From a virus, in the IMG/VR virus record IMGVR_UViG_3300045988_055134, positions 1,364 through 65,363 of that record: 64,000 bases of DNA; one strand, given 5' to 3'. How positions within the stretch are numbered: the first letter of the stretch is position 1; every line of letters starts with the position of its first letter. Both the position numbers and the translations under genes were made by a program. This document shows, piece after piece, positions 1 through 25,594 of the stretch. Below the pieces are notes generated by a model. The model was not told where the DNA came from. It searched no databases and saw nothing but the letters and a program-made list of their open reading frames with translations.

Positions 1-91
1 TAAGTAGGGGATACTTGAGGAGTAGTTATAGGTGAAGCCCCACCTCCACCTTCCTCATTATAATAAAGACACTTACAGCAAACTTGCTTAA

Positions 92-167
92 AAGCAATTA
101 GCTCAGTTGGTTAGAGCATTAAAGTTTATTTTAATTATGGGTTGGTTCGATTCCAACATTCGCTTCA
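92..167 (+). tRNA. tRNA-like element with canonical D-arm (GCTCAGTTGGTTAGAGC) and T-arm (GGTTCGATTCC) but only 5/7 acceptor pairs and an apparent 6-nt anticodon loop; anticodon undetermined, possibly a pseudo-tRNA
   Basis: Manual cloverleaf folding; D and T arms are clear, anticodon arm TTAAA/GTTTAT/TTTAA. Confidence 0.35.
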
Positions 168-184
168 AAAGGGTGTCTTGATAT

Positions 185-260
185 GCTGGCGTAGCTCAGT
201 TGGTAGAGCGCTTCACTTGTAATGAAGATGTCGCAGGTTCGACTCCTGTCGCCAGCTCCA
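185..260 (+). tRNA. tRNA-Thr (anticodon UGU), CCA encoded
   Basis: Acceptor GCTGGCG/CGCCAGC, anticodon stem CTTCA/TGAAG, loop CTTGTAA, T-arm GCAGG-TTCGACT-CCTGT. Confidence 0.85.
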
Positions 261-263
261 TAT

Positions 264-340
264 GTCCCTTTAGCTTAGTTGGATAAAGCGTACGGCTACG
301 AACCGTAAGACCGGGAGTTCGAATCTCTCAAGGGATGCCA
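264..340 (+). tRNA. tRNA-Arg (anticodon ACG), CCA encoded
   Basis: Acceptor GTCCCTT/AAGGGAT, anticodon stem TACGG/CCGTA, loop CTACGAA. Confidence 0.85.
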
Positions 341-341
341 T

Positions 342-418
342 GTGGCTGTAGCTCAGGTGGTTAGAGCACTTGATTGTGGCTCAAGTTGTCGTGGATTCAA
401 ATTCCACCAGTCACCCCA
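342..418 (+). tRNA. tRNA-His (anticodon GUG), discriminator C73, CCA encoded; position -1 is T, not G
   Basis: Acceptor GTGGCTG/CAGTCAC, anticodon stem CTTGA/TCAAG, loop TTGTGGC. Confidence 0.8.
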
Positions 419-483
419 TGAGACCCAAACAGCGATTTTCAATCATATGTTTTTGGTACATACAAGATGAAAGGGGTCTAGAA

Positions 484-636
484 ATGAATAAGAAGACTTA
501 TAAGCAAGCTATGAAGAGGACTGGCGATGAACTACAAGAGTGGCTTCAGTTCAAGCGTCGAGGATCTTCTGTACAAGCTAAGAAGGGCAAGGGATCGTAT
601 TCCCGCAAACAAAAGCATAAAGATAAGGAGTGGTAA
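484..636 (+). CDS. small highly basic hypothetical protein (about 50 aa)
   Basis: ATG with AAAGGGG RBS; K/R-rich; lies between tRNA genes. Confidence 0.3.
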   Translation: MNKKTYKQAMKRTGDELQEWLQFKRRGSSVQAKKGKGSYSRKQKHKDKEW

Positions 637-638
637 TT

Positions 639-953
639 ATGGCTCGTTCATATCGGAAACAACCGGTTTGGAAGGATCATAACCGTGGCATGAAGAAGAT
701 TGCTAATCGTAAAGTGCGGCGGGCGCTTAATAGAAACATTAACCTCGACTTATCGAATTCTGCTTACAAGAAATATACTTGTCAGTGGGATATTTGTGAT
801 TATTGCTCTCTTGTTCCAAGTTCTTTTGAACAGTTCTATCATATCTCTGTTAATAGATGGAAAGAACGTAAAAGCTATTGGTTCTGGAAAGATGAACCAA
901 GTCCTACGAGAGAAGAAGCCTACAGAGATTGGCTTAAATATCGAATGAAATAA
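639..953 (+). CDS. hypothetical basic protein (104 aa)
   Basis: AAGGAG RBS 10 nt upstream of ATG; ORF ends TAA. Confidence 0.45.
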   Translation: MARSYRKQPVWKDHNRGMKKIANRKVRRALNRNINLDLSNSAYKKYTCQWDICDYCSLVPSSFEQFYHISVNRWKERKSYWFWKDEPSPTREEAYRDWLKYRMK

Positions 954-1030
954 GTGCTATTAGCTCAGTTGGACAGAGCATCGGTCTTCTAAACCGAGGG
1001 TCATTGGTTCGAGTCCAATATAGCATACCA
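954..1030 (+). tRNA. tRNA-Arg (anticodon UCU), CCA encoded
   Basis: Acceptor GTGCTAT/ATAGCAT, anticodon stem TCGGT/ACCGA, loop CTTCTAA. Confidence 0.85.
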
Positions 1031-1107
1031 TTAAGACTCTAACAGCAATTCTTTAGCTTATTGAGCATCTAACCGTTAATTAGACTATAATAGAGTCTTG
1101 ATAATAA

Positions 1108-1134
1108 GCAGAGATGGCCGAGCGGTGTTAAGCG
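1108..1134 (+). pseudogene. 5' fragment of a class II (Ser/Leu-like) tRNA (GCAGAGATGGCCGAGCGGT...) with no matching 3' half
   Basis: Resembles the acceptor plus D-arm of tRNA-Ser/Leu; downstream sequence runs into a CDS. Confidence 0.3.
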
Positions 1135-1153
1135 TAGTAACTATTGTTAAGAA

Positions 1154-1591
1154 GTGGTGATTTCTTTGTATGACGTACTGACAATCTCAGATTACATTCT
1201 TAGACGCTGTTCTGACGAAGGGCACACTGTTAGTAATCTGAAGCTACAGAAATTACTGTACTTTGTTCAGGCTGAATTCCTTGTTACAACTGGAAAACCA
1301 TGTTTCCGAGAAAAAATTGTCGCTTGGGATTTTGGACCAGTAATTCCTGAAGTATATCGCAAGTTTTGCATTTTTGGTTCTGCTCATATTCCGGTATCCG
1401 CAGTCGCGAATCCGATATTATCTAAGGGAACCAAAGAACTTATTGATGGTATTGTATTCACTTGCTTACCATTTAGTTCGTCACAGCTCGTTGAAATCAC
1501 TCAGCATCAGACTCCGTGGCTCAACGCTTATATTAAAGGCTATGGCAGCGAGATCACAAATGAGTCAATTCTCAATTTCTTCGCAGAATAA
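1154..1591 (+). CDS. Panacea-domain (DUF4065, SocA-like antitoxin domain) protein
   Basis: Motif LKLQKLLYFVQAEF...WDFGPVIPEVY typical of DUF4065; GTG start. Confidence 0.65.
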   Translation: MVISLYDVLTISDYILRRCSDEGHTVSNLKLQKLLYFVQAEFLVTTGKPCFREKIVAWDFGPVIPEVYRKFCIFGSAHIPVSAVANPILSKGTKELIDGIVFTCLPFSSSQLVEITQHQTPWLNAYIKGYGSEITNESILNFFAE

Positions 1592-1661
1592 TATGCTCAG
1601 TCGGTAGAGCGTTCGATTGATAATCGAAAGGTCGTAAGTTCAAGTCTTATCTGGACTACCA
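1586..1661 (+). tRNA. tRNA-Ile(GAU)-like element: good D, anticodon (TTCGA/TTGATAA/TCGAA) and T arms and encoded CCA, but the 5' acceptor strand does not pair; probably defective
   Basis: Manual folding; 3' acceptor CTGGACT has no complementary 5' strand. Confidence 0.4.
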
Positions 1662-1723
1662 TTTGGGAATATTTCTTTAATTTAATTATCTGCTTCTTTA
1701 TAAATACTGAGGAAGGTGATAAA

Positions 1724-2583
1724 ATGAAGATTTATAATCCAACTAACTATTCTTATATCACTGTTGTAGAAATCCCTAAGACAGAGATTTCAAAGTTTGA
1801 TATGGCATTATGTCAATAGCCACGTTAGACTTTGAAAGCCTATTATGATAGCTGTACTGTTAAGCCTTCTATTATTTCAAATGGTGGTTTCTTTAACATG
1901 AGTAATGGTTCAACTATTTTGAATTATTCTGATGAAGGAAAAATCATTAGCTCTAATTCTTCTTATAAAGAAGGGTTTGGAACTATAAATGGAGAGCTAA
2001 GATACGGTGTAATTGGTCAAGAGAAGTTTGAAGACTTCGTAAGTGGTTATCCAGTTTTGATTAAGGCTGGCGCCGCAGTTCCTATTACTATTGCTTCTGA
2101 GATTAACTATAAAGCTAGAAGAACTGTTTTAGCTTATAATAAAGAGAATATCTTTATTGTGGCTATTGAATCTCCAGGTATGAACTTCTCGCAAATGCAA
2201 TCTTTCTTGCAGACTCTCAAGGTTGATTATGCTATTAACCTTGATGGAGGCGGAAGTACCAAGGTATTACATGATGGTAAGTGTATCACAAAAGCACTTA
2301 CTAATCGTCCTGTTGATAATGTAATGGCTGTTTATTTAAAGCCAAAAGTTATTTATAGAGTATAGCTTGGTGCATTTAGCAAGAAAGCTAATGCAAACGC
2401 ATTTTTGGCTAAGATTAAAGTTCTTCCAGACACAATCAATGCAGGATATAAAAACGCTTATGTCCGCAAGGTTGGTAGTTATTGGAAGGTACAAGTTGGT
2501 GCGTTTTCTGTGAAGACTAACGCAGCAAGAGTAGTTCATGATCTAGCTAACAAGGGATATAATGCTTTTGTTACAACAATTTG
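1724..2583 (+). CDS. phosphodiester-glycosidase (DUF2233/NAGPA-like, NLDGGGST motif) plus C-terminal SPOR domain protein; three in-frame TAG codons (1817, 1826, 2363)
   Basis: GAGGAAGGTGA RBS before ATG 1724; the reading frame is continuous through the TAGs to a TGA at 2581; SPOR motif YRV-TAG-LGAFS. Confidence 0.75.
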
Positions 2584-2658
2584 ATTTTGTATAAATATTA
2601 TGATATAATATTTATACAAGATAAGGAAAGACACATATTACAATATGTGTCTTTATAA

Positions 2659-2730
2659 CGGGGTGTAAGTCAGTGGTAGACGGCGATATTTGGGGTATCG
2701 AGGTCGCAGGTTCGAATCCTGTCACTCCGA
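2659..2730 (+). tRNA. tRNA-Pro (anticodon UGG)
   Basis: Acceptor CGGGGTG/CACTCCG, anticodon stem CGATA/TATCG, loop TTTGGGG, T-arm GCAGG-TTCGAAT-CCTGT; CCA not encoded. Confidence 0.75.
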
Positions 2731-2813
2731 GTCTTTTGTGATATAAACCTCCACGCGGTAAAAGATGGGTAACGCTAATTATATCAAAGTAAAAAGAAAG
2801 GAGTCATTTAGTT

Positions 2814-3437
2814 ATGGCATACATCTATTAGATCACTAATGACATAAATGGTAAAATTTATGTCGGTAAAACTGAATTCTCTATCGAGAAACGCTTTAAG
2901 GAACATTGTCGAGATGCTTTCAAAGAGCGTAACGAAAAGCGTCCATTATATTCTGCTATGCGGAAATATGGAATTGAACATTTCCATATTGAGCTAATTG
3001 AAGAAACGGATGATCCAGAAGAGCGAGAAGTTTATTGGATTGAACAAAAACGTTCTTTCAAGAATGGATATAATGCAACCCTTGGCGGCGATGGAAAGAG
3101 ATATTGTGACTATGATTTAATATATTCTTTATATAAAGAAGGATTAAATATTAAAGAAGTTGCAAAAATTTTGAATTATTCTACGGACACTTGTTCAAAG
3201 GTGTTAAATCAATATGGTATTTCCAAAGAAGAGCGAAGTATTAAAAGTCGTTTAGGTATTATTAAGCCTGTTATACAGATAGATAAAAATACCAATCAAA
3301 TTTTGAATATTTTCCCTTCAATTAAAGCTGCTTATGATCGTTTGGGTAAACAACATTCAGGGCATATAGCTGCTGTATGCAATGGCAAACGAAAAACTGC
3401 TTATGGATACAAATGGAAATACGGTGAAACCTCGTAA
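2814..3437 (+). CDS. GIY-YIG homing endonuclease (Seg/I-TevI-like) with in-frame TAG at codon 6
   Basis: N-terminus MAYIY-TAG-ITNDINGKIYVGKT...R..H matches the GIY-YIG motif; C-terminal NUMOD-like DNA-binding region; AAAGGAG RBS. Confidence 0.8.
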
Positions 3438-3898
3438 CTTGCCAGAGCTTAGATAAGGTTATCCCTTATAGTTACGGCCACTTCCCCATTAAATGGGGTT
3501 ATGTATCACTCCTTTCCTATGTTATGGAAAAGACCCATACAGCAAATTCTTCTATTTACTTGAATACAAGAATGTTTATTGGTAAGTATATTACCTCCAG
3601 ACTATGATATATCTCTTTAAGACGGAAACAAGCGAGAGATATGGAGTCATTAGCTTGAGTTTCTGTGGGTCTTGATTTGAAAAAATAATAAACCTACACG
3701 GTTAAGCATAAATCATAAATCGTGTAGTAAAACGCTATATCAGCAAACTTTTGTGCTACTAATTTGAATAAATATAAAAGATATTTATGGTTTTAAGACC
3801 ACGATCTTAAAACTTAGTTCTTTTGGGTAGTGAACATATGGGGAACCGACAAAAGGACGAAAAGGAATTGGTTATGCCCGTTAGCGTCTTGTAAATAT

Positions 3899-3973
3899 TG
3901 GGGTGTCGCCAAGCGGCAAGGCAACGGACTTTGACTCCGGTATTCGTGAGTTCGAATCTCACCATCCCAGCCA
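3899..3973 (+). tRNA. tRNA-Gln (anticodon UUG), CCA encoded
   Basis: Close to E. coli tRNA-Gln (TGGGGT.TCGCCAAGCGG.AAGGCA); loop CTTTGAC. Confidence 0.8.
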
Positions 3974-3975
3974 TT

Positions 3976-4090
3976 TGGAAGTTAGTGTAAGAAATAACAC
4001 GCGCGTAAGATTTAGCCTAGCAATAGGTTGTAACAGCAGTTTTATCGTATGGGACGCGAGATATGGGTTCAAATCCTGTACTTCCAACCA
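3976..4090 (+). tRNA. tRNA-like gene (acceptor, D-arm, anticodon stem CGCGT/ACGCG, T-arm, CCA) with a 47-nt insertion in the anticodon-loop position that includes a GCCTA-GCAA-TAGGT GNRA hairpin
   Basis: Manual folding; class I spacing is exact except for the anticodon-loop insert; the insert contains CTA. Confidence 0.4.
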
Positions 4091-4112
4091 CATGAAAGAG
4101 AGGAGAATGTAT

Positions 4113-4544
4113 ATGTCACAATATCTTAACTTCTTTGTTCGTCACAATGAGGATTTTATTCCTCTCGCAAACTACTCTCGTAATACTCATGTTTATGATA
4201 TTGCAGAAGCCCCTTATGAAAAGATTAGGCGGTTTAGTCAAGAACAGCTTGAATCAATAGCAAGCAGATTGCGGGAGAGCAAGACTTCTGCTCATAAAGA
4301 GATTGCTCGTCTACAGCAAGAAATCGAGATTGTAAAAGGAATTATCATTACCGTGGATAATTTCGATGAATTGCTTTGCGCTATTCACAATATCACGAAC
4401 ATGATTTCTGAATATCAAGAGGATATTGAAGCTCTCGAGCGAGAAGCAATCGAGATTGAGTTTATGCGGAATATGACCTATGATGATTGCGAAATCTTCG
4501 CAGGCATTGAAATTAGTGATCCAACAATGGATGATATTTGTTAA
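4113..4544 (+). CDS. hypothetical protein (coiled-coil)
   Basis: AGGAGA RBS; ORF ends TAA. Confidence 0.55.
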   Translation: MSQYLNFFVRHNEDFIPLANYSRNTHVYDIAEAPYEKIRRFSQEQLESIASRLRESKTSAHKEIARLQQEIEIVKGIIITVDNFDELLCAIHNITNMISEYQEDIEALEREAIEIEFMRNMTYDDCEIFAGIEISDPTMDDIC

Positions 4545-4557
4545 GAGGAAGAAAGAT

Positions 4558-4743
4558 ATGTATATTTGTCCAACTTGTCATAAGGCTTTCAGTTCAGAGA
4601 GCTACATCAAAAAGCATTTCTTAGATTGTTGGAAGGAGCAACACCCATTCCATCAATCAACTCCAGCACCTCGTTCAGAGGATATTGTAGAAGTTCAAGC
4701 AGATGATGATGTATTGGCTTTCTTTGCGAGGTTAAAAGCATGA
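4558..4743 (+). CDS. small C2H2/zinc-finger-like protein
   Basis: GAGGAAG RBS; CPTCHKAFSS...H motif. Confidence 0.5.
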   Translation: MYICPTCHKAFSSESYIKKHFLDCWKEQHPFHQSTPAPRSEDIVEVQADDDVLAFFARLKA

Positions 4744-5093
4744 CAGAAGATGTTATGATTAAGACCCATCTGATTGTTACAGATGTTCACGAAGAATATT
4801 CAATTAGATGGTGCGGACGGATCATTGATACGAAGCCTTTATTAGTAAACAATAAACCTATTTTTGTAATCATTGGTAGAAACAAGCGTGTTGAGGTCAA
4901 TACTATTGATATGAAGCACGTCGAAGAGTGCGCGAAGCGTGTAACAAATCCACGAGGCCGTGCCGCAATCACAAGCGATCAGGCTTCTATTTACATTAAA
5001 GAAGTAGATGACAAAGAAACTTGTATTGGAGTTATTACTCATCGTCATGTGAAAAGTTATGCTCCAATGTATGATGCAGTAGGTTATGAATAA
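4740..5093 (+). CDS. hypothetical protein
   Basis: ATGA overlap with the upstream gene; 117 aa. Confidence 0.5.
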   Translation: MTEDVMIKTHLIVTDVHEEYSIRWCGRIIDTKPLLVNNKPIFVIIGRNKRVEVNTIDMKHVEECAKRVTNPRGRAAITSDQASIYIKEVDDKETCIGVITHRHVKSYAPMYDAVGYE

Positions 5094-5101
5094 GAAAGTA
5101 T

Positions 5102-5187
5102 GCCGCCATGGTGGAACTGGTAGACACAGGGGACTTAAAATCCCCCGGTGTAGAACCGTGCGGGTTCGAGTCCCGCTGGCGGCACCA
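5102..5187 (+). tRNA. tRNA-Leu (anticodon UAA), class II, CCA encoded
   Basis: Acceptor GCCGCCA/TGGCGGC, anticodon stem GGGGA/TCCCC, loop CTTAAAA, long variable arm. Confidence 0.85.
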
Positions 5188-5191
5188 ATTT

Positions 5192-5265
5192 ACCGGTTTA
5201 GTATAATGGTAGTACAGAGGACTCTGACTCTTCTGACGGTAGTTCGACTCTACCAACCGGTGCCA
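5192..5265 (+). tRNA. tRNA-Gln (anticodon CUG), CCA encoded
   Basis: Acceptor ACCGGTT/AACCGGT, anticodon stem GAGGA/TCTTC, loop CTCTGAC. Confidence 0.8.
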
Positions 5266-5311
5266 TTTTCTCCTTCTTTACGGACTCCTGGCGGCTTTAA
5301 TGCCGTCATAT

Positions 5312-5388
5312 GGTTCTTTAGCTGAGTTGGTTACAGCCTTCCGCTCATAACGGAAAGATCCAGAGTTCGAGCCTCTGAAGAACCACCA
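5312..5388 (+). tRNA. tRNA-Met/Ile2 (anticodon CAU), elongator type, CCA encoded
   Basis: Acceptor GGTTCTT/AAGAACC, anticodon stem TTCCG/CGGAA, loop CTCATAA. Confidence 0.8.
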
Positions 5389-5391
5389 TAC

Positions 5392-5465
5392 GCGGGGTTA
5401 GGCTATAGGTAGACCATCAGCGTTAAAAGGCTGAAAAAGCGGTTCGAATCCGCAACCCCGCACCA
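5392..5465 (+). tRNA. atypical class I tRNA with an apparent 8-nt anticodon loop GTTAAAAG (UAA or UUA anticodon) and a 3-nt variable loop; CCA encoded
   Basis: Acceptor GCGGGGT/ACCCCGC is perfect; T-arm GCGG-TTCGAAT-CCGC; only the stem TCAGC/GCTGA fits. Confidence 0.5.
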
Positions 5466-5489
5466 TATACATTTGAAAGGAAGTAAAGT

Positions 5490-6602
5490 ATGAATATTGT
5501 AAATGCAGGTTCTCGCTATCAGGTGTATGGCGAAGATGTTCAGACATACAAAGAGTTGCCTACTGCAACTTACACAGTCGGTTTCCATCCGCAGATGGGT
5601 TTTTGGCTTACCAAGCATGATGACCTTGTAATCAATGAGGGCACGATTTATGGCGATCATGCTCGCAAGGCAGATAAAATCCTTAAATCGTTTCAGATTA
5701 GCGCAAGAAACTTCGGTGTTATTCTTTCTGGTAAGAAGGGTATCGGTAAGTCTTTGCTCGCTCGAATGATTGCTAACAAATCTATTGAAAATGATATGCC
5801 TGTTATTATTGTTGATGCGGCTGTGCCCGGTATCAGCAATTTTCTTAGCTCTATTCAGCAAGAGGTAACAATCATTTTCGACGAGTTCGAAAAGACTTTC
5901 CACAAGACAGATGATGGTGATCCGCAGATAGAAATGCTTAGTCTATTTGACGGCATTGATAATGGCAAGAAATTATTCGTTATCACCTGTAACGACCCGC
6001 GTGACCTCAATGAGTTTCTTGTTAATAGACCTGGTCGTTTCCATTATCATTTCGAGATTACTTGCCCTGCACCTGAGGAAATTCGTGCTTACATGACTGA
6101 TAAGCTCGGCACTGGCTGGGACGACGAGATTGATAAGATTATTAAGCTGTCTCAGATGTCGAATATCACCTTCGACTGTTTGCGGGCTATTGCTTTTGAT
6201 CTTAAGCAGGGATACCCTCTCGAGGAAACTCTCATGGATCTAAATATCAACTACGAGCGTGATGTCGCTTATGATATTACCATTAGACTTTCTAATGGTT
6301 GGACTAATACCAAGTATAGTTACAGAGTTAACCTGTATTCTGCGGGATGGGTATATTGTGAATTTTACAATAAAGAGTTCTGCTACCACGTTAAATTCGA
6401 TGTGAAGAGTGTCGTTGCTGAGAATGGCGTGCTTTGTGTTGATCCCGATAAGGTCACACTATCGTTGCCGTGGGATGCTTTTGATGAGCTGCCAGACAAC
6501 GATGCAGAGATTGCTAAGAAACAGTGGCTCAATTCCACCTCCATTCTTTCTCTCACACTCACTAAGGTAAACGACTTGATGATTAACAAGTTTGGTGTGT
6601 AA
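5490..6602 (+). CDS. AAA+ ATPase (Walker A GKKGIGKS, sensor NRPGRFH)
   Basis: Motif content; GGAAG RBS. Confidence 0.75.
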   Translation: MNIVNAGSRYQVYGEDVQTYKELPTATYTVGFHPQMGFWLTKHDDLVINEGTIYGDHARKADKILKSFQISARNFGVILSGKKGIGKSLLARMIANKSIENDMPVIIVDAAVPGISNFLSSIQQEVTIIFDEFEKTFHKTDDGDPQIEMLSLFDGIDNGKKLFVITCNDPRDLNEFLVNRPGRFHYHFEITCPAPEEIRAYMTDKLGTGWDDEIDKIIKLSQMSNITFDCLRAIAFDLKQGYPLEETLMDLNINYERDVAYDITIRLSNGWTNTKYSYRVNLYSAGWVYCEFYNKEFCYHVKFDVKSVVAENGVLCVDPDKVTLSLPWDAFDELPDNDAEIAKKQWLNSTSILSLTLTKVNDLMINKFGV

Positions 6603-6612
6603 GTAAATATAA

Positions 6613-6647
6613 ACCCTGTCATTATTATATAATGACAGGGTTTTTTG
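6613..6647 (+). terminator. rho-independent terminator (CCCTGTCATTA...TAATGACAGGG then a T-run)
   Basis: Perfect inverted repeat followed by TTTTTT. Confidence 0.7.
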
Positions 6648-6776
6648 TTGCATATATGTGGGCATTGGACCGCGCTCGGTGCAAACGCAAAGTAGTTTTA
6701 GAATTTTTCGGGCCAAATATGGGAAAATGACTTGCTACAATTTTTATATCTATGTGAGAGGAGGGATTTATAAGAA

Positions 6777-6989
6777 TGGCTGATTTAGTAGTTCTTAAAG
6801 GTTCTTTTGCCAATCTCGATAGCATCCCGATTAAAGAGGGCTAGTTGATTTTCACGACAGATGAGGGTAATCGTCTGATTTTCTTGGATACTGATAACAG
6901 TACTCGAGTATAGATCACTTCTCCCGCGATTGAGGATACTGATACAATCATTTTGGACGCCGGCGGCGCTCCTATAACAATAGGAGGTT
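6777..6989 (+). CDS. small protein with two in-frame TAG codons; its N-terminal motif is shared with the neighbouring fibre-like genes
   Basis: GAGGAGGG RBS; ATG 6777; ends TAA 6987. Confidence 0.5.
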
Positions 6990-6996
6990 AAGGCAT

Positions 6997-7509
6997 ATGG
7001 CTGTTAAAACAATTTAGATTGTCTTAAAGATGCGCCGTGATAATGATTACAATTACGAGAAGGTAAAGGATAGTTTTATTCCCGAAAAGGGCGAAATTTG
7101 TTTAGTAGATACTGCTAAGCAAGGCCTTTGCGTGATTGTTGGCGATGGCGTGTCAACTTATGGAAGTCTTGAGTATGAGAATACTATCTTCCAACGCGCT
7201 TATTTCATTGGTGAAAAGATTTTCAAAGATGTTGATGGCACTCAAGAAATCACTCCTAATGAAAATAAAATTTATATTGATGCCAATAACTCAAATGCTT
7301 TATATTATTATAATGGTGTTGAGTTTGTTGGCATTGGACCGGGTTCGCTTCCCGTAGCGTCTGCGGAAACCGCTGGTATTATGAAACTTTACACTGGTAG
7401 TGGAGAGAATACTGATGGCACCATGACGCAAAAAGCGATTACAGATGTACTGAACACCAAAATTGGCGTTACAGTTAATTTAGAAGATGAAATAGCTATC
7501 TTCAAATAA
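6997..7509 (+). CDS. tail-fibre/structural-like protein with in-frame TAG at codon 7
   Basis: TAGGAGG RBS; ATG 6997 is in frame with ORF 7030-7509. Confidence 0.6.
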
Positions 7510-7532
7510 TCTTATAGGAAGAAATTAATTTT

Positions 7533-8741
7533 ATGGCTATTTTTGATCCTAAGAATGTTCCTGTTATTTCCAAACTAACTATTGGAGATCAGACTTATTA
7601 TCTAAAGGACGCTGAAGTTCGTGAGCTGCTTAAGACTCTTGGTACTGCTGCTCAGAAAGATGTTGCCGCGGGTGTTGGCGCTGATGAGCAGGGTCTTGTA
7701 ACTGGTGCTCAGGTTCAGGCTGCCATTGCTAGCTCTATGCACTTCCGCGGTGTTGTTACTTCTTTTGATGACATTACCGATCCTGCCGCAGGTGATGTAA
7801 TTATCATTGGTGTTAAGGAGTACGTGTATGGCGGTGAGCCTGCTACATGGCATGAGCTTGGCGATGAGAGCATTTATGCTTTAAAGACTGTTACTATTGG
7901 TACTCAGAATCTGTCTGCTAATATTAACCTTGATACCCTTGCTGCGGATATGGGTCTTGGCAAGCTGGCTAAGAAGGATTCCGCTACTGGTACCGTAGCT
8001 GGCCAGACTATTACCGGTCTGAAGGCTAAGGGCAATGCCGCGGGTTCTATTGAGGTTGGTCTTACTCAGACTGCAACTGATGCTACTCTAACCAAGAGTG
8101 ATTATACTCCAGCAGGTACTGTAACCGGTACGACAACTGCTGCTGGTACTGTTAGTATTGCTAAGGATGCTGAAAACGGTGTTCAAATTTCCGGTTCTGT
8201 GTCTGCACCAAACGTAACCGTAACCCCAGCTAAGGATAGTATTAAAAAGGTAACTTCCGTTGGTTCTTTGCCGTCTAAGGCTAAGGATACTTTTGTTACC
8301 AACGGCGATGATACTTTTACTCAAGGTTCTCAGGCTTCTTGGAGTGCTTCTGTTGATGATGCCACTGAGACTTTAAGTTTTAGCTTTACCGCGAATGTAC
8401 TTCCTACTTTTGTGCAGGGCGCAAAGGCTTCTTATACAGAAGGTGCATTTGATGCAGGTACTCTTCCAGAACTTGCTGAAACCGCAACCGATGTTGTAAC
8501 TGGTATTACTAGCGCGACTGCTACGGCTCCAGTATTTACTGGCGATAAATTTGCAGCTACCTTTGCTGGTAATGAAGTCGATGTTAATGCTACCTTCGCA
8601 GGCACTAAGACTCAGGTTGTTACCGGCGTATCTTACGATAAGGCTGGCGTAGACACTGACAAGACCAAGTTCACTGGCGCTGCTGTTGAGCTTGATGTTG
8701 ACGACGTAGTAGTTACCGCTAAGGAAGTTACTGTTAAGTAA
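7533..8741 (+). CDS. Ala/Thr/Gly/Val-rich structural (fibre-like) protein
   Basis: Low-complexity TGT/TAT repeats; high GC; N-terminal motif ..YYLKDAEVREL. Confidence 0.6.
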   Translation: MAIFDPKNVPVISKLTIGDQTYYLKDAEVRELLKTLGTAAQKDVAAGVGADEQGLVTGAQVQAAIASSMHFRGVVTSFDDITDPAAGDVIIIGVKEYVYGGEPATWHELGDESIYALKTVTIGTQNLSANINLDTLAADMGLGKLAKKDSATGTVAGQTITGLKAKGNAAGSIEVGLTQTATDATLTKSDYTPAGTVTGTTTAAGTVSIAKDAENGVQISGSVSAPNVTVTPAKDSIKKVTSVGSLPSKAKDTFVTNGDDTFTQGSQASWSASVDDATETLSFSFTANVLPTFVQGAKASYTEGAFDAGTLPELAETATDVVTGITSATATAPVFTGDKFAATFAGNEVDVNATFAGTKTQVVTGVSYDKAGVDTDKTKFTGAAVELDVDDVVVTAKEVTVK

Positions 8742-8794
8742 TTTAGCACTAGCGAGTTAAATGCTCATTTATGAAAATAAAGGATGGTGAGTAA

Positions 8795-9265
8795 ATGGCG
8801 AATAAGTACATTTCCCATGTAGAACTCGGCAGTACCATTTACTCCCTTAAAGATGAAGAAGCAAGAGCCGCGGTCAATGCATTGCAAACTGCGGTTTCTT
8901 CTTCTCTAGTCTTTAAAGGTGTCGTCTCTAGTGCTGCCGATCTTACTGGTCTAAAGAACTACAAAATTGGTTGGACATATAAAGCTAATGCTTCTTTCGA
9001 GATTGCTTCTTTGGGCAAACTTGAAGTAGGCGATATGATTATATGTATCGGCGATTATAGCTCTAGCTATAAAGCAAGTGACTGGACAGTAGTTCAAAAC
9101 AATGTAGATACTATGACTGGAGCTTCCTCTACGGCCGGAGGCACGAGAGGTTTAGTACCAGCGCCTCAAGCAGGAGATACTGATAAGTATCTTAAAGGTG
9201 ATGGATCGTGGGGTTCTCCTTCTGCGTCTGTTGCTTGGGGCAATTTCTCTGATTTAATAGGATAA
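8795..9265 (+). CDS. structural/fibre-like protein paralogue
   Basis: N-terminus ...IYSLKDEEARAAV resembles the 7533 and 18180 genes. Confidence 0.55.
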   Translation: MANKYISHVELGSTIYSLKDEEARAAVNALQTAVSSSLVFKGVVSSAADLTGLKNYKIGWTYKANASFEIASLGKLEVGDMIICIGDYSSSYKASDWTVVQNNVDTMTGASSTAGGTRGLVPAPQAGDTDKYLKGDGSWGSPSASVAWGNFSDLIG

Positions 9266-9295
9266 AGCCATTAGGCTTTATCCTATTTTTTTATT
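9259..9295 (+). terminator. rho-independent terminator
   Basis: GGATAAAGCC/GGCTTTATCC followed by a T-run. Confidence 0.7.
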
Positions 9296-9377
9296 TTTCT
9301 CAAAAATTATTGTATTATATGTATATAAACAAAAGGAAATATGATAAGGATCGACACTAAGCTAGCTTAGATGATCT

Positions 9378-9406
9378 TTGACATATATGAAATTTTATTA
9401 TATAAT
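9378..9406 (+). promoter_or_regulatory. sigma70-type promoter: TTGACA, 17-nt spacer, TATAAT
   Basis: Exact consensus hexamers with 17-nt spacing. Confidence 0.65.
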
Positions 9407-9439
9407 ATATATAGTAAATGAGAAAAGGAGTTACAAGTT

Positions 9440-9772
9440 ATGTTTCCGATTGAGAAGTACAAGTTTTATACCAATGGTTCTCGTGTAATTGTGGTTTCCA
9501 CCTACGCAGGCAGGGTAGTGCGTGGTGTTGCAGTATGCCATGCAGATGACGAGTTTTCACTGGAGAAGGGTAAGCAGCTTGCTGCTCTGCGATGCGCAGA
9601 AAAGATTGCTACTAAGCGTATGAAGCGCGCAACGGCGAAGAAACTTGAGGCTAGACGCATTTATGATGATGCGGTTGCTCATTATTCTGATATGGCTGAT
9701 TATGAGAATGAGGCTGCGCATGAACTGCATGAAGTTATGGAAGCTAAACGAGAGTTTCTTGAAACTCTATAA
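9440..9772 (+). CDS. hypothetical protein
   Basis: AAAGGAG RBS. Confidence 0.55.
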   Translation: MFPIEKYKFYTNGSRVIVVSTYAGRVVRGVAVCHADDEFSLEKGKQLAALRCAEKIATKRMKRATAKKLEARRIYDDAVAHYSDMADYENEAAHELHEVMEAKREFLETL

Positions 9773-9809
9773 GTTGCTATCCTGAGCAAGATATAAAACT
9801 GCTCTATTT

Positions 9810-9903
9810 GGAGGATTAACCCTAATTGGTAAGGGAGCGGTCCTGAAAACCGCTAGTACCCGTGAACAACGGCGTAAGAGTTCAAGTCTCTTATCCTCCG
9901 CCA
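9810..9903 (+). tRNA. tRNA-Ser (apparent anticodon UGA, unusual C33), class II, CCA encoded
   Basis: Acceptor GGAGGAT/ATCCTCC, anticodon stem GCGGT/ACCGC, loop CCTGAAA, 22-nt variable arm. Confidence 0.7.
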
Positions 9904-9960
9904 ACAAATTAGACGAGAAATAGGAGGCAGAATAATGGACGCTTTAGAATTTGCAAAAGA

Positions 9961-10272
9961 ATGTGCAGGAGCCACGAGAGATGTCTCGACTGTCCGCTTA
10001 AAGGAGTCAAATGTAACGAGATTGATGAAAGTTACAGTAAAATCATTGCTATCGTTGAACAATGGTCGAAGGATCATCCACGCAAAACGCGACAGAGTGT
10101 ATTTCTAGAGCAGTGGCCTGATGCCGTCCTTGATAGGTTTGGAGTAATGCAGCTTTGTCCGATGAATGTTTCTGCTGCTCACAGAAGAAGAGACAATAGC
10201 GAAAAGTGTAAGAATCCAGAAAAACTGTGTATAGACTGCCGCCGCGAATTCTGGATGCAGGAAGTAGAATAA
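9961..10272 (+). CDS. Cys-rich (CxxC) hypothetical protein
   Basis: ORF of 103 aa; weak RBS; there is an alternative ATG at 9935 in another frame. Confidence 0.4.
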   Translation: MCRSHERCLDCPLKGVKCNEIDESYSKIIAIVEQWSKDHPRKTRQSVFLEQWPDAVLDRFGVMQLCPMNVSAAHRRRDNSEKCKNPEKLCIDCRREFWMQEVE

Positions 10273-10351
10273 TGAGAGATAAAAATCTCATAAATGCGGA
10301 AACTACACGCTGACTCATGAGACTGTAACGGATGCCGATGGAGGAGGAAAT

Positions 10352-10765
10352 GTGATGGAAAATGTTAATTGCCTGCGTTGCCGCTTTAGGCATAAGGATA
10401 ACGGAAACTGTACTGCGGTCGGTGGATTCTGCACGGCGGTCCCGGCGGCGCACTGCCCGCTACTGCGGGAATATTTGGACGGAGGTCAGTTAATGGGTAA
10501 ATACATCACGAAAGAAGCCGCGCTGAATACAATCTTCAGCGAACCGCCGGAAGCGCATTATCCGAGTTGGTACGCAGAGAGGATTAAGGCGCTGCCAGCT
10601 GCCGATGTTGCGCCGGTGGCGCATGGGTGGTGGAACGCAGACGAAACTTGCTCATTGTGCGGAGAGAAGTCAACGGAAGGACTGGACGCAACGAAGTGGA
10701 ACTATTGGCTCCCTAACTACTGCCCCAACTGTGGTGCAAAGATGGGCGGAAAGGATGGCTGCTAA
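10352..10765 (+). CDS. Cys-rich hypothetical protein in a GC-rich segment
   Basis: GAGGAGGAAATG RBS. Confidence 0.55.
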   Translation: MMENVNCLRCRFRHKDNGNCTAVGGFCTAVPAAHCPLLREYLDGGQLMGKYITKEAALNTIFSEPPEAHYPSWYAERIKALPAADVAPVAHGWWNADETCSLCGEKSTEGLDATKWNYWLPNYCPNCGAKMGGKDGC

Positions 10766-10827
10766 GCAGTCCTGGATTATTTACAATAAAAGCAAGAAAT
10801 GAGAAATTTGCAATAAAATAAATATTA

Positions 10828-10836
10828 TGATATAAT
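10828..10836 (+). promoter_or_regulatory. extended -10 promoter element TGATATAAT
   Basis: Member of the repeated promoter family. Confidence 0.5.
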
Positions 10837-10857
10837 ATGAAAGTGAGGGATTTAATA

Positions 10858-10950
10858 ATGCTGAATAAAGTAAGACACTTCTTCAAGGGTGTTTATCAGG
10901 CTGAGATGGATTATCAAAAGAAGAATAATGTTCGCTTCTTCTTGCGATAA
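10858..10950 (+). CDS. 30-aa peptide
   Basis: GAGGGA RBS directly downstream of a promoter element. Confidence 0.3.
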   Translation: MLNKVRHFFKGVYQAEMDYQKKNNVRFFLR

Positions 10951-10969
10951 TTCTCTTCTCTTCTTTTAA

Positions 10970-11051
10970 GGGCGAGTGGTGGAATGGTAGACACGGCAGA
11001 CTCAAAATCTGCTGCTTACGCGTGAGGGTTCGAATCCCTCCTCGCCTACCA
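10970..11051 (+). tRNA. tRNA-Leu (anticodon CAA), class II, CCA encoded
   Basis: Acceptor GGGCGAG/CTCGCCT, anticodon stem GCAGA/TCTGC, loop CTCAAAA. Confidence 0.8.
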
Positions 11052-11078
11052 TTAACTTACAGAAAGGGTTATAAAACA

Positions 11079-11330
11079 ATGAAAAAGAAGATTGTGGCAC
11101 TGGTTGCAGCTGCGGGTTTAGCATTCTGCTTAACTGGATGCGGAAACCATCAGATTTTAGATACTAATTTCTATTTTAATAGAGCAATTATCTCGATACC
11201 AGATGGCACAGTAGTTGATGGTATAGTTCAGTCTTGGAAAGACTTTGACGATGGTGATACTATTCAAATCAAGATTGATGATGTAACATATCTTACACAT
11301 ATTTCCAATGTAGTCTTAATGACCGATTAA
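11079..11330 (+). CDS. small lipoprotein (signal peptide plus lipobox LTGC)
   Basis: MKKKIVALVAAAGLAFCLTGCG. Confidence 0.65.
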   Translation: MKKKIVALVAAAGLAFCLTGCGNHQILDTNFYFNRAIISIPDGTVVDGIVQSWKDFDDGDTIQIKIDDVTYLTHISNVVLMTD

Positions 11331-11350
11331 GCGGCTTTTGTCGCTCTTAT

Positions 11351-11437
11351 GCGAACGTAGTCAAGTGGATTAAGACCCCGGCCTGCAAAGCTGTGTGACC
11401 CGTAAGGGCGTGAGTTCGAATCTCACCGTTCGCTCCA
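11351..11437 (+). tRNA. class II (long variable arm) tRNA with apparent anticodon GCA (Cys codons); anticodon stem is weak
   Basis: Acceptor GCGAACG/CGTTCGC, loop CTGCAAA, variable arm with CCC-GTAA-GGG hairpin, T-arm GTGAG-TTCGAAT-CTCAC, CCA. Confidence 0.5.
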
Positions 11438-11440
11438 TAA

Positions 11441-11515
11441 GACCTTAACAGCAAAGGAATGGACTGTAAATCCGTCGCTTATGCTACGCAGGTTCGAATC
11501 CTGCCCTCCTCACCA
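11441..11515 (+). tRNA. tRNA-Tyr(GUA)-like element lacking a complementary 5' acceptor strand; it abuts the CCA of the preceding tRNA
   Basis: Anticodon arm ATGGA-CTGTAAA-TCCGT, T-arm GCAGG-TTCGAAT-CCTGC, 3' CCTCCTC-A-CCA. Confidence 0.45.
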
Positions 11516-11628
11516 CTATATGCGGAGGTAGGGAAGTGGTCAAACCCAACGGAACCAAAAACAATAGGTCTAGAATTTAATCTCCCTTGTCCAAGGGAGC
11601 GACTAAAAATCAAAAGGAGATTGATACA

Positions 11629-25173: not shown

Positions 25174-25594
25174 TCCATATATCTACACTCATAATGCCGC
25201 TGAGAGACTATACAATGAATATAAGAAGTATGGCAGTATAATCATAGCATTTGACTTTGATTATACTGTCCATAATTTCAAAGATGAACAATGGCGCTAT
25301 GATGGTGTAATTAACTTGCTGCGGGCATGGCAACCATATGCCAAGCTCGTTGTATTTACAGCTTCCGCGGAAGAGCGTTATCCATATATTGAAAAATATT
25401 TACGCGATAATGATATTCCATTTGGCTATATCAATGAAGATATTCTTCCACCAGAAAAGCATACCCCAGCGCGAAAAATTTATTACAATATTTTGCTCGA
25501 TGATCGCGCTGGGCTTGGTAATGCGTTCGCAATATTGAGAGAAGTATACAATAGACTTGAAGCAGAAGGAGAACTTAAAACATGGAGAAAGTAA
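25133..25594 (+). CDS. HAD-superfamily phosphatase/nucleotidase-like
   Basis: DxDxT motif FDFDYTV; LDDR. Confidence 0.5.
   Translation: MILEQDSTEKVLCDPYIYTHNAAERLYNEYKKYGSIIIAFDFDYTVHNFKDEQWRYDGVINLLRAWQPYAKLVVFTASAEERYPYIEKYLRDNDIPFGYINEDILPPEKHTPARKIYYNILLDDRAGLGNAFAILREVYNRLEAEGELKTWRK

Follow-up and report, generated by a model that had tools for sequence, protein, structure and literature searches.

Introduction

Natural tRNAs with an enlarged anticodon loop are very rare, and we know of none with a known role outside mitochondria and laboratory suppressor mutants. Gene finders usually dismiss such molecules as 'undetermined' or as pseudogenes. The yeast mitochondrial tRNA-Thr1(UAG), whose loop UUUUAGGU has 8 nt, is a triplet decoder (PMC3113583), and at the A site SufJ pairs as a triplet in the zero frame (PMC4238358); an 8-nt loop alone does not imply quadruplet decoding (PMC3113583, PMC4238358). 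Decoding is tuned by two interacting loop positions, 32 and 38, which in SufJ are 31.5 and 38 (PMC4238358).

Here we analyse a class I tRNA gene of 74 nt, encoded CCA included, that lies at positions 5392-5465 (+ strand) of a stretch of phage DNA of 64 kb, which we call the window, from a genome of ~145 kb. The phage that carries it is distantly related to Bacillota phages of the Herelleviridae type and reads TAG as sense; its relatives encode CUA suppressor tRNAs. In the literature, we found no report of this 8-nt-loop tRNA family.

Results

A tRNA gene with an 8-nt anticodon loop

ARAGORN calls a tRNA at exactly this location and strand, with the label 'Leu|Phe (taaa)' and the four-base anticodon 'taaa', which corresponds to an 8-nt loop. 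The Rfam tRNA model RF00005 matches the same segment with 37.9 bits, above its gathering score of 29 (E-value 2.2e-4 for the whole window, 3.5e-7 locally), and in the alignment the anticodon loop has an insertion of 1 nt. The minimum free energy (MFE) fold is a cloverleaf (-30.8 kcal/mol, z = -4.3) with the same 5-bp anticodon stem and 8-nt loop, both of which RNAalifold retains for 13 distinct family members, and none of ARAGORN, the Rfam model, single-sequence folding or RNAalifold returned an alternative fold with a 7-nt loop. In sequence and alignment, U8, A14, G18 and G19 are all present, together with the 7-bp acceptor stem, the T-loop TTCGAAT and the 3' CCA of a cloverleaf (Table 1). 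The locus is confirmed as a genuine tRNA gene with an 8-nt anticodon loop.

Table 1. Positions in the window of the tRNA's structural elements and of nearby genes
Feature	Position	Strand	Remarks
Class II tRNA-Leu(UAA), bona fide	5102..5187	+	Same array; its loop CTTAAAA has UUAAAA in common with the 8-nt loop
tRNA-Met(CAU), upstream neighbour	5312..5388	+	Ends 3 nt before the 8-nt-loop tRNA; ARAGORN and Rfam
Acceptor stem, 5' strand GCGGGGT	5392..5398	+	Pairs with ACCCCGC at 5455-5461; 7 standard pairs, perfect
D arm, stem GGCT/GACC	5401..5415	+	7-nt loop ATAGGTA with G18 and G19; C12.A23 mismatch in stem
Anticodon stem, 5' strand TCAGC	5417..5421	+	Pairs with GCTGA at 5430-5434; 5 of 5 pairs invariant in 13 distinct family sequences
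Anticodon loop GTTAAAAG, 8 nt	5422..5429	+	Anticodon AAA (3-3-2), UAA (2-3-3) or four-base UAAA
Variable region AAA, 3 nt	5435..5437	+	Deletion relative to consensus in the Rfam alignment
T arm AGCGG / TTCGAAT / CCGCA	5438..5454	+	4 pairs and unpaired A49.A65; canonical T-loop sequence
Discriminator A73, then encoded CCA	5462..5465	+	Read from the sequence
ATPase gene (phrog_2376), downstream neighbour	5490..6602	+	Starts 24 nt past the CCA of the 8-nt-loop tRNA

An earlier note on this DNA had described the molecule as class I, with a perfect 7-bp acceptor stem, the anticodon stem TCAGC/GCTGA, an 8-nt loop, a 3-nt variable region and CCA, and ARAGORN, the Rfam model, the MFE fold and RNAalifold agree that it did so correctly. 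It had proposed ARAGORN as a check, which gave the call above, and had named a 7-nt-loop fold from a covariance model as one outcome that would speak against it; the Rfam model accommodates the loop by an insertion instead. Three details were absent from that description, namely the C12.A23 mismatch, the T stem of four pairs with 49.65 unpaired, and the fact that the 3-nt variable region counts 4 nt when the T stem is taken as 4 bp. Of the 13 distinct family variants, 5 have U at position 12 and thereby a U-A pair in place of the C12.A23 mismatch; position 49.65 is unpaired in every family copy, as A.A or, in one relative (L011), as A.G.

In canonical elongator tRNAs the anticodon loop is 7 nt long, with Y32, U33 and a purine in position 37, the variable region counts 4-5 nt, and all 5 bp of the T stem are formed. 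The tRNA described here departs from the first of these features in ~32 of ~32 copies, and from the variable region and T stem as well. A G at position 32 is rare in tRNAs. Nor does the molecule look like a bacterial tRNA-Leu, in which one expects the long variable arm of class II and A73: its body is class I, its variable region is 3 nt long, and most copies have G73. The A73 identity rule for tRNA-Leu is established knowledge on E. coli LeuRS. The Rfam score of the tRNA is the third lowest among the 15 tRNA matches in the window.

Distribution and conservation among gut phages

The gene is carried by ~32 related contigs of human-gut phages, 10 in IMG/VR and 22 in metagenomes, which come from a wide range of samples. 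Examples are ERZ1034928.5 NODE-5 (146 kb), ODKV01000053.1, UONT01000067.1 and IMGVR_UViG_3300045988_054378, while IMGVR_UViG_3300045988_051454 and IMGVR_UViG_3300045988_060821 are contigs without it. In pattern searches that permitted 5 to 10 loop bases, the loop was 8 nt long in all ~32 copies, and its TT and AAAA runs are free of any insertion or deletion. We rejected a sequencing error in a homopolymer, as independent assemblies from many samples give the same 8-nt loop. One of the carriers (L116) is a phage without any of the cluster proteins of the window.

Outside this group the tRNA was absent from ~185,000 representative bacterial and archaeal genomes, and a DNA search of GenBank phages gave no match in near or distant mode; a search of GenBank phages with the ATPase found relatives at 39-47% identity only. 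Scans of IMG/VR, JGI/ENA metagenomes and the 185,000 species genomes with the 5-10-base pattern revealed no 7-nt-loop version or progenitor: the single 7-nt match (L115) and 24 of the 25 genome matches were discarded as chance matches within coding sequence, and the only real tRNA among those 25 is an unrelated Bacteroidetes tRNA-Gly(CCC). A 16-mer scan for the anticodon arm in other tRNA bodies hit 48 extra loci, 0 of them in a tRNA. Among ~1,200 phage tRNAs there was no paralog, the best matches, to tRNA-Val(UAC), sharing the acceptor stem only. A remnant of an integration site (attP) was also dismissed, since the sequence is carried by no host genome.

Between the window and the main clade, 69-71 of the 74 nt of the tRNA are identical (93-96%), compared with 52% of the third codon positions of the ATPase gene, which are saturated between these lineages, and with 77% for the adjacent tRNA-Met. 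The tRNA is one of the three best conserved among 10 shared tRNAs and beats 7 of the 9 others compared. Acceptor pair 7:66 is U7:A66 in the window and one relative (L110) and C7:G66 in most relatives, a compensatory change; it is the only pair changed on both sides, in a family whose uniformity leaves little covariation to support the structure. Most relatives have G as discriminator and six lineages have A, in copies that are otherwise nearly identical, and disruptive changes occur in single copies (C2.A71 in L020, A1.C72 in L130 and C56 to A in L119).

The bases U-U-A at loop positions 2-4 are invariant across the family, whose loop variants are GTTAGAAG (L012) and TTTAAAAA (L116). In L116 both loop-end bases change jointly (G..G to U..A) and the core UUAAAA is retained; by our own calculation, the chance that 2 of the 6 substitutions in L116 hit both loop-end positions is ~0.006. 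Inside the loop there is a single variant, A to G in L012; the loop of the genuine tRNA-Leu of these phages varies in the same way, from CTTAAAA to CTTAGAA. From these comparisons, the 8-nt loop looks like a selected state rather than damage. Its strict clade-wide conservation could not have been seen by the earlier note.

The same clade harbours a second 8-nt-loop tRNA, CTTGTTAA, at 12 loci, and a 7-nt allele of it, CTGTTAA, at 3 loci, which places the extra U 5' of the anticodon. A tRNA(AAA) whose loop has 7 nt, present in L030 and L205, resembles the tRNA described here in its anticodon and T arms and differs from it in the acceptor stem; it is a possible distant cousin with a 7-nt loop, and the only candidate for one. 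In distant relatives, loops of 6, 7 or 8 nt have G-U-(U)-A-A-A-A in common.

Genomic neighbourhood

No terminator-like site was found on the + strand between the tRNA and the ATPase gene, and a strong one follows that gene at 6611-6643; the tRNA is probably co-transcribed with the ATPase gene. In two relatives (L019 and L021) the tRNA gene is cleanly deleted and tRNA-Met abuts the ATPase gene, an exact loss which indicates that the tRNA is dispensable. Another relative (L013) keeps the tRNA though the adjoining tRNA-Met has lost its 5' half. An obligatory processing signal for the ATPase mRNA was considered and rejected, as tRNA-Met holds that position in the two deletion lineages and a different tRNA is found there in every distant relative.

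The window also encodes normal Leu(UAA) and Leu(CAA) tRNAs, and a Phe(GAA) tRNA is present in L011, a relative that is 98% identical. A truly decayed tRNA (Ile GAU) lies at 1585-1658 and, in contrast to the 8-nt-loop tRNA, has several unpaired acceptor positions, and an ORF with a Panacea domain (antitoxin-like) is located inside the tRNA array.

Stop codons and in-frame quadruplets

TAA is the main stop codon of this phage, ending 35 of the 48 + strand stop-to-stop ORFs that are 150 codons or longer. In-frame stops detected in window genes are TAG, not TAA as an ochre suppressor would call for. Quadruplets are not depleted in window genes: TTT followed by A occurs at 148 in-frame sites (34.9% vs 32% expected) and TTA followed by A at 98 (44% vs 32% expected). 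Among the 11 ORF pairs of the window that overlap in the +1 frame, 0 require a +1 shift, the partners being complete or overlapping without a suitable codon.

Discussion

The reading that we favour, tentatively and at somewhat less than an even chance, is that of a selectively maintained accessory phage tRNA that pairs as a triplet with a UUN codon, through the anticodon AAA or UAA, in the manner of the yeast mitochondrial 8-nt-loop tRNA-Thr. Such a tRNA would be transcribed in the phage tRNA array along with the downstream ATPase mRNA, would be excised by RNase P and 3'-end processing in the same way as its neighbours, and would then act in translation as an accessory tRNA by ordinary triplet pairing with a codon of the UUN box. 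In a 3-3-2 register, as in SufJ and yeast mitochondrial tRNA-Thr, the loop would comprise G31.5, U32, U33, the anticodon A-A-A (codon UUU), A37 and G38; in a 2-3-3 register, as in SufA6, it would comprise G32, U33, the anticodon U-A-A (codons UUA and UUG), A37, an extra A and G38. The structure, the conservation, the constant loop length, the restriction to phages and the lack of signals of quadruplet avoidance or split genes are observed, whereas expression, aminoacylation, the anticodon register and triplet decoding itself are all steps that we infer.

Natural triplet-decoding 8-nt-loop tRNAs are marked by a clade-wide 8-nt loop and by the tolerance of in-frame quadruplets (PMC3113583), and both are found here. 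The lack of depletion of TTT-A and TTA-A in window genes argues for triplet rather than quadruplet reading. The joint loop-end change in L116 and the A-to-G variant in L012 would be typical behaviour of a decoding tRNA, which they fit at least as well as they fit a decoy.

Some features are not what one would expect of a decoding tRNA. With a Leu or Phe identity one would not expect the discriminator to drift between A and G; such drift would suit an RNA that does not become aminoacylated at all. Efficient elongator tRNAs do not usually show an unpaired 49.65, a 3-nt variable region or a G as first loop base. The candidate codons already have normal tRNAs to read them, Leu(UAA) and Leu(CAA) being encoded in the window and Phe(GAA) in L011, and our scans found no 7-nt-loop progenitor that would fix the amino-acid identity.

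It is also conceivable, if rather unlikely, that the molecule is a non-decoding tRNA-like RNA, which has kept the L-shape and is removed from translation by its enlarged loop. It could then serve as a decoy or inhibitor of a tRNA-targeting host enzyme, or as an aminoacyl or other carrier for a non-ribosomal reaction. The drifting discriminator would suit such a role, and the peculiarities at 49.65, in the variable region and at the first loop base, which would weaken its use by synthetase, EF-Tu or ribosome, would be irrelevant to a decoy. The core of the loop, UUAAAA, is identical to positions 33-38 in the loop of the phage tRNA-Leu(UAA), as in a mimic, and the motif shared by the 6-, 7- and 8-nt loops of distant relatives hints at a greater importance of the motif than of the register in which it is read. 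Phage tRNAs are moreover known to counter tRNA-targeting host defences (PMC10264068, PMC11555353, PMC11464382), and the antitoxin-like Panacea-domain ORF sits within the array. The published cases, however, are functional, cleavage-resistant tRNAs and not decoys, and the tRNA described here keeps its encoded CCA and a perfect acceptor stem. The loop variants of L116 and L012 are explained at least equally well by decoding. The loop complement CTTTTAAC is not enriched in the window, which also counts against a decoy and led us to reject pairing of the loop with an antisense target.

Clearly less probable is a natural +1 frameshifting or quadruplet tRNA (UUU-A or UUA-N) that would serve to express or regulate a few genes, probably late ones, outside the window. 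An 8-nt loop is the hallmark of the classical suppressors sufD, SufJ, SufA6 and SufB2 (PMC4238358, PMC5009743), and an anticodon loop of at least 8 nt, as expected of a +1 suppressor, is indeed what we find, with strictly conserved length and a four-base anticodon, UAAA, assigned by ARAGORN. The phage already alters decoding through TAG recoding, and the window covers 64 kb of its ~145-kb genome. The extra U of the second 8-nt-loop tRNA would also pair with a fourth-position A (AAC-A). Within the 64 kb, however, neither shift-requiring genes nor avoidance of in-frame quadruplets was found, the gene has been precisely deleted in two relatives, and the L012 variant would turn the quadruplet UUUA into UCUA. 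A 2016 review knows of no natural phage tRNA with a non-standard loop that has been shown to frameshift (PMC5009743). The earlier note had pointed to frameshift suppressors, an implication that these results (quadruplets not avoided, no +1-dependent ORF pair, two clean deletions) speak against. Its proposal of UAA (Leu) or a four-base anticodon still stands as a possibility, given the ARAGORN label, but the suppressor function that came with it finds no support here. A broader version, in which TAG-recoded gut phages would keep 8-nt-loop tRNAs (UAAA and an Asn-like UGUU) as +1 or quadruplet decoders (of UUU-A and AAC-A) for a few genes outside the 64 kb, we likewise regard as a long shot. If it were true, 8-nt-loop quadruplet decoders would form a second, frame-level layer of phage recoding above the reassignment of stop codons.

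We consider it very unlikely that the gene is a decaying tRNA pseudogene, in which slippage inserted a base in the TT or AAAA run and the copy has not yet eroded. One-base insertions in homopolymer runs are the commonest indels, which counts for this explanation, as do the defects of the body (C12.A23, A49.A65 and the short variable region), the low Rfam score, the loss of the gene in L019 and L021 and the disruptive changes in the few single copies noted above; tRNA decay does happen in this cluster. A pseudogene should nevertheless show relaxed constraint, loss of pairing and a near-neutral rate, and the tRNA shows 93-96% identity against 52% at saturated synonymous sites, is better conserved than most other shared tRNAs, and has undergone one compensatory and one pair-restoring change. 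A 7-nt ancestor or revertant occurs in none of the ~32 copies, nor in IMG/VR, the metagenomes or the 185,000 genomes, and the gene has been kept in the very different phage L116.

An ochre (UAA) suppressor reading through the invariant U-U-A, as the earlier note had entertained, is hardly credible despite the stop-codon suppressor tRNAs of relatives, as the UUA is preceded by G instead of the universal U33, readthrough of the main stop codon TAA would be harmful, and the recoded stop is TAG, read by CUA tRNAs.

Clade-wide conservation makes this tRNA more interesting than a one-off oddity. It offers a sequence-defined candidate with which to ask whether loop-expanded phage tRNAs are used for decoding, for low-level frame shifting, or for evading or blocking tRNA-targeting defences, and its sequence could serve as a natural scaffold in quadruplet-codon engineering. 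Should the molecule be no more than an ordinary accessory tRNA in which one additional base is tolerated, the default annotation of 8-nt loops in phage arrays as pseudogenes would be unwarranted.

Comparison with known systems

With the classical suppressors sufD, SufJ, SufA6 and SufB2, the tRNA has in common an 8-nt loop in an otherwise normal cloverleaf (PMC4238358, PMC5009743). The base inserted on the 5' side in SufJ assumes the pairing with position 38, and an equivalent arrangement would explain the joint loop-end change in L116. The classical suppressors are, however, laboratory mutants with one base inserted in a known 7-nt isoacceptor, selected against a specific frameshift mutation, whereas the phage gene is wild-type and conserved, and we detected neither a 7-nt parent nor a suppressible site for it.

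Among phages, the nuclease-escaping tRNAs are likewise phage-encoded, dispensable members of a large array with a non-cellular anticodon loop (PMC10264068, PMC11464382, PMC11555353); they carry substitutions within 7-nt loops and still decode, and a change of loop size is not described for them, in contrast to the 8-nt loop reported here. The 'tRNAs in a phage' of Atkins et al. 2016 resemble it in having non-7-nt loops and no known frameshifting role (PMC5009743). The phAss-1 group resembles the phage itself in its human gut habitat, a genome of ~135-148 kb, dozens of tRNAs, CUA suppressors, in-frame TAG and a probable Bacillota (Clostridia) host (PMC10607447); anticodon loops are unmentioned in that report (PMC10607447), and the window is without a DNA match of at least ~85% identity in GenBank phages.

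The yeast mitochondrial tRNA-Thr1 differs from the phage tRNA in its known origin (from tRNA-His), its synthetase (MST1) and its demonstrated reassignment of CUN to Thr, as well as in being an organellar rather than a phage gene. Yet both have a natural, clade-wide 8-nt loop with pyrimidines 5' and purines 3' of the anticodon, and in both systems in-frame quadruplets are not avoided, which was the original argument for triplet decoding in yeast. The L012 variant even carries UAG, as does yeast tRNA-Thr1.

Structure of the tRNA with an 8-nt anticodon loop

The tRNA gene, on the + strand, reads GCGGGGT-TA-GGCT-ATAGGTA-GACC-A-TCAGC-GTTAAAAG-GCTGA-AAA-AGCGG-TTCGAAT-CCGCA-ACCCCGC-A-CCA. ARAGORN reported a tRNA of undetermined type with a 4-base anticodon, 'taaa'. 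The Rfam tRNA model scored it at 37.9 bits (gathering score 29), requiring a 1-base insertion in the anticodon loop, flagging C12.A23 and A49.A65 as non-standard pairs and finding the variable region, AAA, one base short. Thermodynamic folding gave the same cloverleaf (-30.8 kcal/mol, z = -4.3), and RNAalifold, applied to 13 distinct homologues, retained the 8-nt loop together with an invariant 5-bp anticodon stem. As none of these four methods proposed a 7-nt loop, no better fold emerged to contradict the earlier note's description of a class I tRNA with an 8-nt loop, which is thus borne out; to it we can add one unpaired position each in the D stem and the T stem.

Conservation of the family

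With the neighbouring ATPase gene as query, and with pattern scans that did not fix the length of the loop, homologues were found on 10 contigs from IMG/VR and 22 from human-gut metagenomes. All copies have eight bases in the loop, which read GTTAAAAG in all lineages but two, GTTAGAAG in one lineage (contig L003 = L012) and TTTAAAAA in contig L116. The tRNAs of the window and of the main clade agree at 69-71 of their 74 nucleotides; the ATPase is 72% identical as a protein and only 52% at third codon positions, and among the neighbouring tRNAs identity runs from 63% to 97%, the adjacent tRNA-Met standing at 77%. At acceptor pair 7:66 the window and contig L110 have U:A and the other copies C:G, a compensatory change, and a C12-to-U substitution in 5 of 13 distinct variants restores the D-stem pair. 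In contig L013 the gene is intact next to a tRNA-Met that lacks its 5' half, and in L116, a different phage, a copy with 68 of 74 identical nucleotides directly follows a class II tRNA-Leu(UAA). From this conservation, the constant loop, the compensatory change and the retention in L116 and L013 we conclude, on comparative sequence grounds, that purifying selection acts on the gene, loop length included; the weakness of the covariation statistics is due solely to the uniformity of the family. In two contigs (L019, L021) a clean 77-nt deletion between the two CCA ends has removed spacer and tRNA, and the gene is therefore dispensable. Its sequence is absent from 185,579 bacterial and archaeal species (one genome each), which rules out a host tRNA or an attachment-site remnant.

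Over its 12 kb, L116 has only a homing-endonuclease-like ORF in common with the window, where it lies within the tRNA array. That this is the sole protein common to two phages with an 8-nt-loop tRNA suggests that mobile endonucleases may shuffle tRNA cassettes between phages.

Genomic setting and TAG recoding

All genes of the window lie on the + strand (GC ~0.40), and an array of 15 tRNA or tRNA-like genes, with small ORFs between them, is followed by replication and nucleotide-metabolism genes (topoisomerase II subunits, DnaB-like helicase, PhoH, NAMPT, NAD synthase, DnaE-type polymerase and NrdD). The closest relatives in culture are Bacillota phages of the Herelleviridae type, with an ATPase identity of only 39-44%, and no DNA match to the window was found among GenBank phages. 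The 8-nt-loop tRNA starts 3 nt after tRNA-Met and ends 24 nt before the ATPase gene, and a strong terminator is present only 3' of the latter, so that a polycistronic tRNA-mRNA transcript is the probable source of the tRNA. In the NAD salvage cluster, a 153-aa ORF of no known family overlaps the NAMPT end by 41 nt.

TAA terminates 35 of the 48 long ORFs and TAG only 3, two of which are the in-frame cases of the NrdD and RecJ-like genes; given these in-frame codons and the rarity of TAG at ORF ends, TAG appears to serve the phage as a sense codon, even in genes of early expression or replication. CUA suppressor tRNAs and tmRNA genes are present in relatives.

Coordinates of the features discussed (window unless a contig is named)
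Feature	Position	Remarks
tRNA or tRNA-like gene array	1-11,500	15 genes
Asn-like abnormal-loop tRNA	93-166; L015 639-713; L019 352-426; L130 2392-2466; L016 1-74; L021 424-497	all-A/T acceptor stem, no encoded CCA
Panacea-domain ORF	1154-1591	SocA-like antitoxin domain, within array
Decayed tRNA-Ile(GAU)	1585-1658	Rfam 48 bits; missed by ARAGORN
Homing-endonuclease-like ORF	2958-3437; L116 1222-1704	NUMOD1/HTH; 50% identity
8-nt-loop tRNA	5392-5465	
tRNA-Cys(GCA)	11351-11437	variable region unusually long (13 nt)
Tyr(GUA)-like tRNA body	11442-11504	no acceptor stem; Rfam positions 9-63 only
DUF2828/DUF7788 ORF	11587-13116	PHROGs label 'RNA-binding protein'
NAD salvage cluster	23449-26316	NAMPT, 153-aa ORF, NAD synthase
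RecJ-like nuclease gene	50854-52437	DHH / TAG (51691-51693) / DHHA1 + RecJ_OB
NrdD gene	58431-60659	ATP-cone / TAG (58845-58847) / NRDD
Class-I-sized Leu tRNAs	L029, L040 (e.g. 11711-11786), L042, L044, L047, L051, L052	72-77 nt
tRNA(AAA), 7-nt loop GTAAAAT	L030 1654-1725; L205 (match at 3594-3612)	72 nt, no encoded CCA

Anticodon register and competing explanations

We tentatively favour an accessory tRNA that decodes triplets. Two registers fit, and in either the anticodon would pair with a UUN-box codon. In the 3-3-2 register, G31.5, U32 and U33 would precede the anticodon A-A-A, followed by A37 and G38; U32-U33 would then be canonical. This geometry has been solved for SufJ, a +1 frameshift suppressor, in which contact with position 38 passes to the inserted 5' base (PMC4238358), and the loop UUU-UAG-GU of yeast mitochondrial tRNA-Thr has it too (PMC3113583). 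The register explains why both loop-end bases are altered together in L116 (G..G to U..A), for which we calculate a chance of ~0.006 among its six substitutions. The clade's second abnormal-loop family, an Asn-like tRNA, matches it as well: its 8-nt loop CTTGTTAA (C-UU-GUU-AA; 12 loci) has a 7-nt allele, CTGTTAA (C-U-GUU-AA; 3 loci), which places the extra U 5' of the anticodon. The copy in the window and its close relative L011 is diverged, with a 6-nt loop (ARAGORN anticodon 'tt'). Also in agreement is the tRNA(AAA) of contigs L030 and L205, similar to the 8-nt-loop tRNA in D arm, anticodon stem and T arm and quite different in the acceptor stem; between its two copies G7:C66 has changed to A7:U66, a compensatory change. 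A-first anticodons are frequent in these phages (Ser AGA, Cys ACA, Thr AGU, Leu AAG, Pro AGG, Ile AAU and Phe AAA in L013-L022, L037, L040, L042 and others); to our knowledge, bacteria normally have only Arg ACG. In several of these phages tmRNA genes are found too, with tags like DNNYFDSHMAA.

In the 2-3-3 register, G32 and U33 would be followed by U-A-A, A37, an extra A and G38. The loop core UUAAAA is what the phages' own tRNA-Leu(UAA) loop, CTTAAAA, has at positions 33-38, and one A added to this canonical loop would give that of L116. The sole internal loop variant, in L012, would change UAA to UAG, still within the Leu codon families, paralleling the step from CTTAAAA to CTTAGAA in these phages' genuine Leu tRNAs. 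In bacteria, tRNA-Leu normally belongs to class II; many class-I-sized tRNAs with Leu anticodons (CAA, UAG, AAG, GAG) occur in distant relatives, beside or in place of the class II form.

A serious rival to triplet decoding, albeit one we consider unlikely, is a non-decoding tRNA-like RNA acting as decoy or carrier. Among copies that are otherwise almost the same, most have G as discriminator, and six lineages have A; under the E. coli LeuRS identity rules a G at position 73 is expected to cost a tRNA its Leu identity, and a position 73 that varies freely would fit an RNA that never receives an amino acid. Position 49.65 is unpaired in all copies, the variable region consists of AAA, the loop begins with a purine, and distant relatives (L050, L030, L051) have 6-, 7- and 8-nt loops sharing G-U-(U)-A-A-A-A. 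A Panacea-domain ORF, which may be a counter-defence gene against tRNA-targeting toxins, lies inside the array, and tRNAs of phages are known to oppose host defences directed against tRNAs (PMC10264068, PMC11464382, PMC11555353). Against this, the RNA has no known partner, and the complement of its loop is not enriched in the window.

Improbable, too, is a +1 or quadruplet decoder, which would have to shift with low efficiency or act at a site in the ~80 kb of genome outside the window. Across the 66 ORFs called on the + strand (51.7 kb), A is the next base after in-frame TTT in 34.9% of 424 cases and after TTA in 44% of 221; neither lies below the 32% background of A at first codon positions, so the quadruplets of a UAAA decoder are not avoided, a logic already applied to the yeast mitochondrial tRNA (PMC3113583). 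Only 2 of 11 +1-frame overlapping ORF pairs contain TTT or TTA in the overlap: in one, NAMPT ends at full length (...G-F-M-stop) and the next ORF has its own ATG; the other joins two ORFs without recognisable family. The pairs DUF7192/AAA ATPase and DnaE/guanylate kinase were rejected, as each partner is a protein complete in itself and independent of the other. The suppressor interpretation in the earlier note thus receives only partial support: the expanded loop stands, while frameshifting found no positive support within the 64-kb window, in which neither quadruplet avoidance nor a suppressible site was seen.

We give still less credence to a pseudogene, as the truly decayed tRNA-Ile(GAU), probably a decaying copy of the intact gene in L011, is quite unlike the 8-nt-loop tRNA, with several unpaired acceptor positions. 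This decayed copy overlaps the end of the Panacea ORF. The ochre (UUA) reading once proposed is scarcely credible, since G precedes UUA and TAA is the main stop codon.

Where the array ends, the Tyr-like body lies directly 3' of tRNA-Cys, and with the ORF directly downstream this locus may represent a tRNA-like RNA paired with an RNA-binding protein.

Comparison with known systems

We found no published description of this family; according to a passage in a 2016 review, non-standard loop sizes with no known frameshifting occur in a small number of natural tRNAs, 'tRNAs in a phage' among them (PMC5009743). In anatomy, the classical +1 suppressors come closest, but they have a 7-nt parent and a suppressible site, neither of which was found here, and we therefore do not file the tRNA with them. 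The description that suits it best is a tRNA variant of TAG-recoded gut phages, new, conserved and specific to phages, with an obligatory 8-nt anticodon loop; it is unusual, directly testable in its candidate function, and closest in its probable working to the 8-nt-loop tRNA-Thr of yeast mitochondria.
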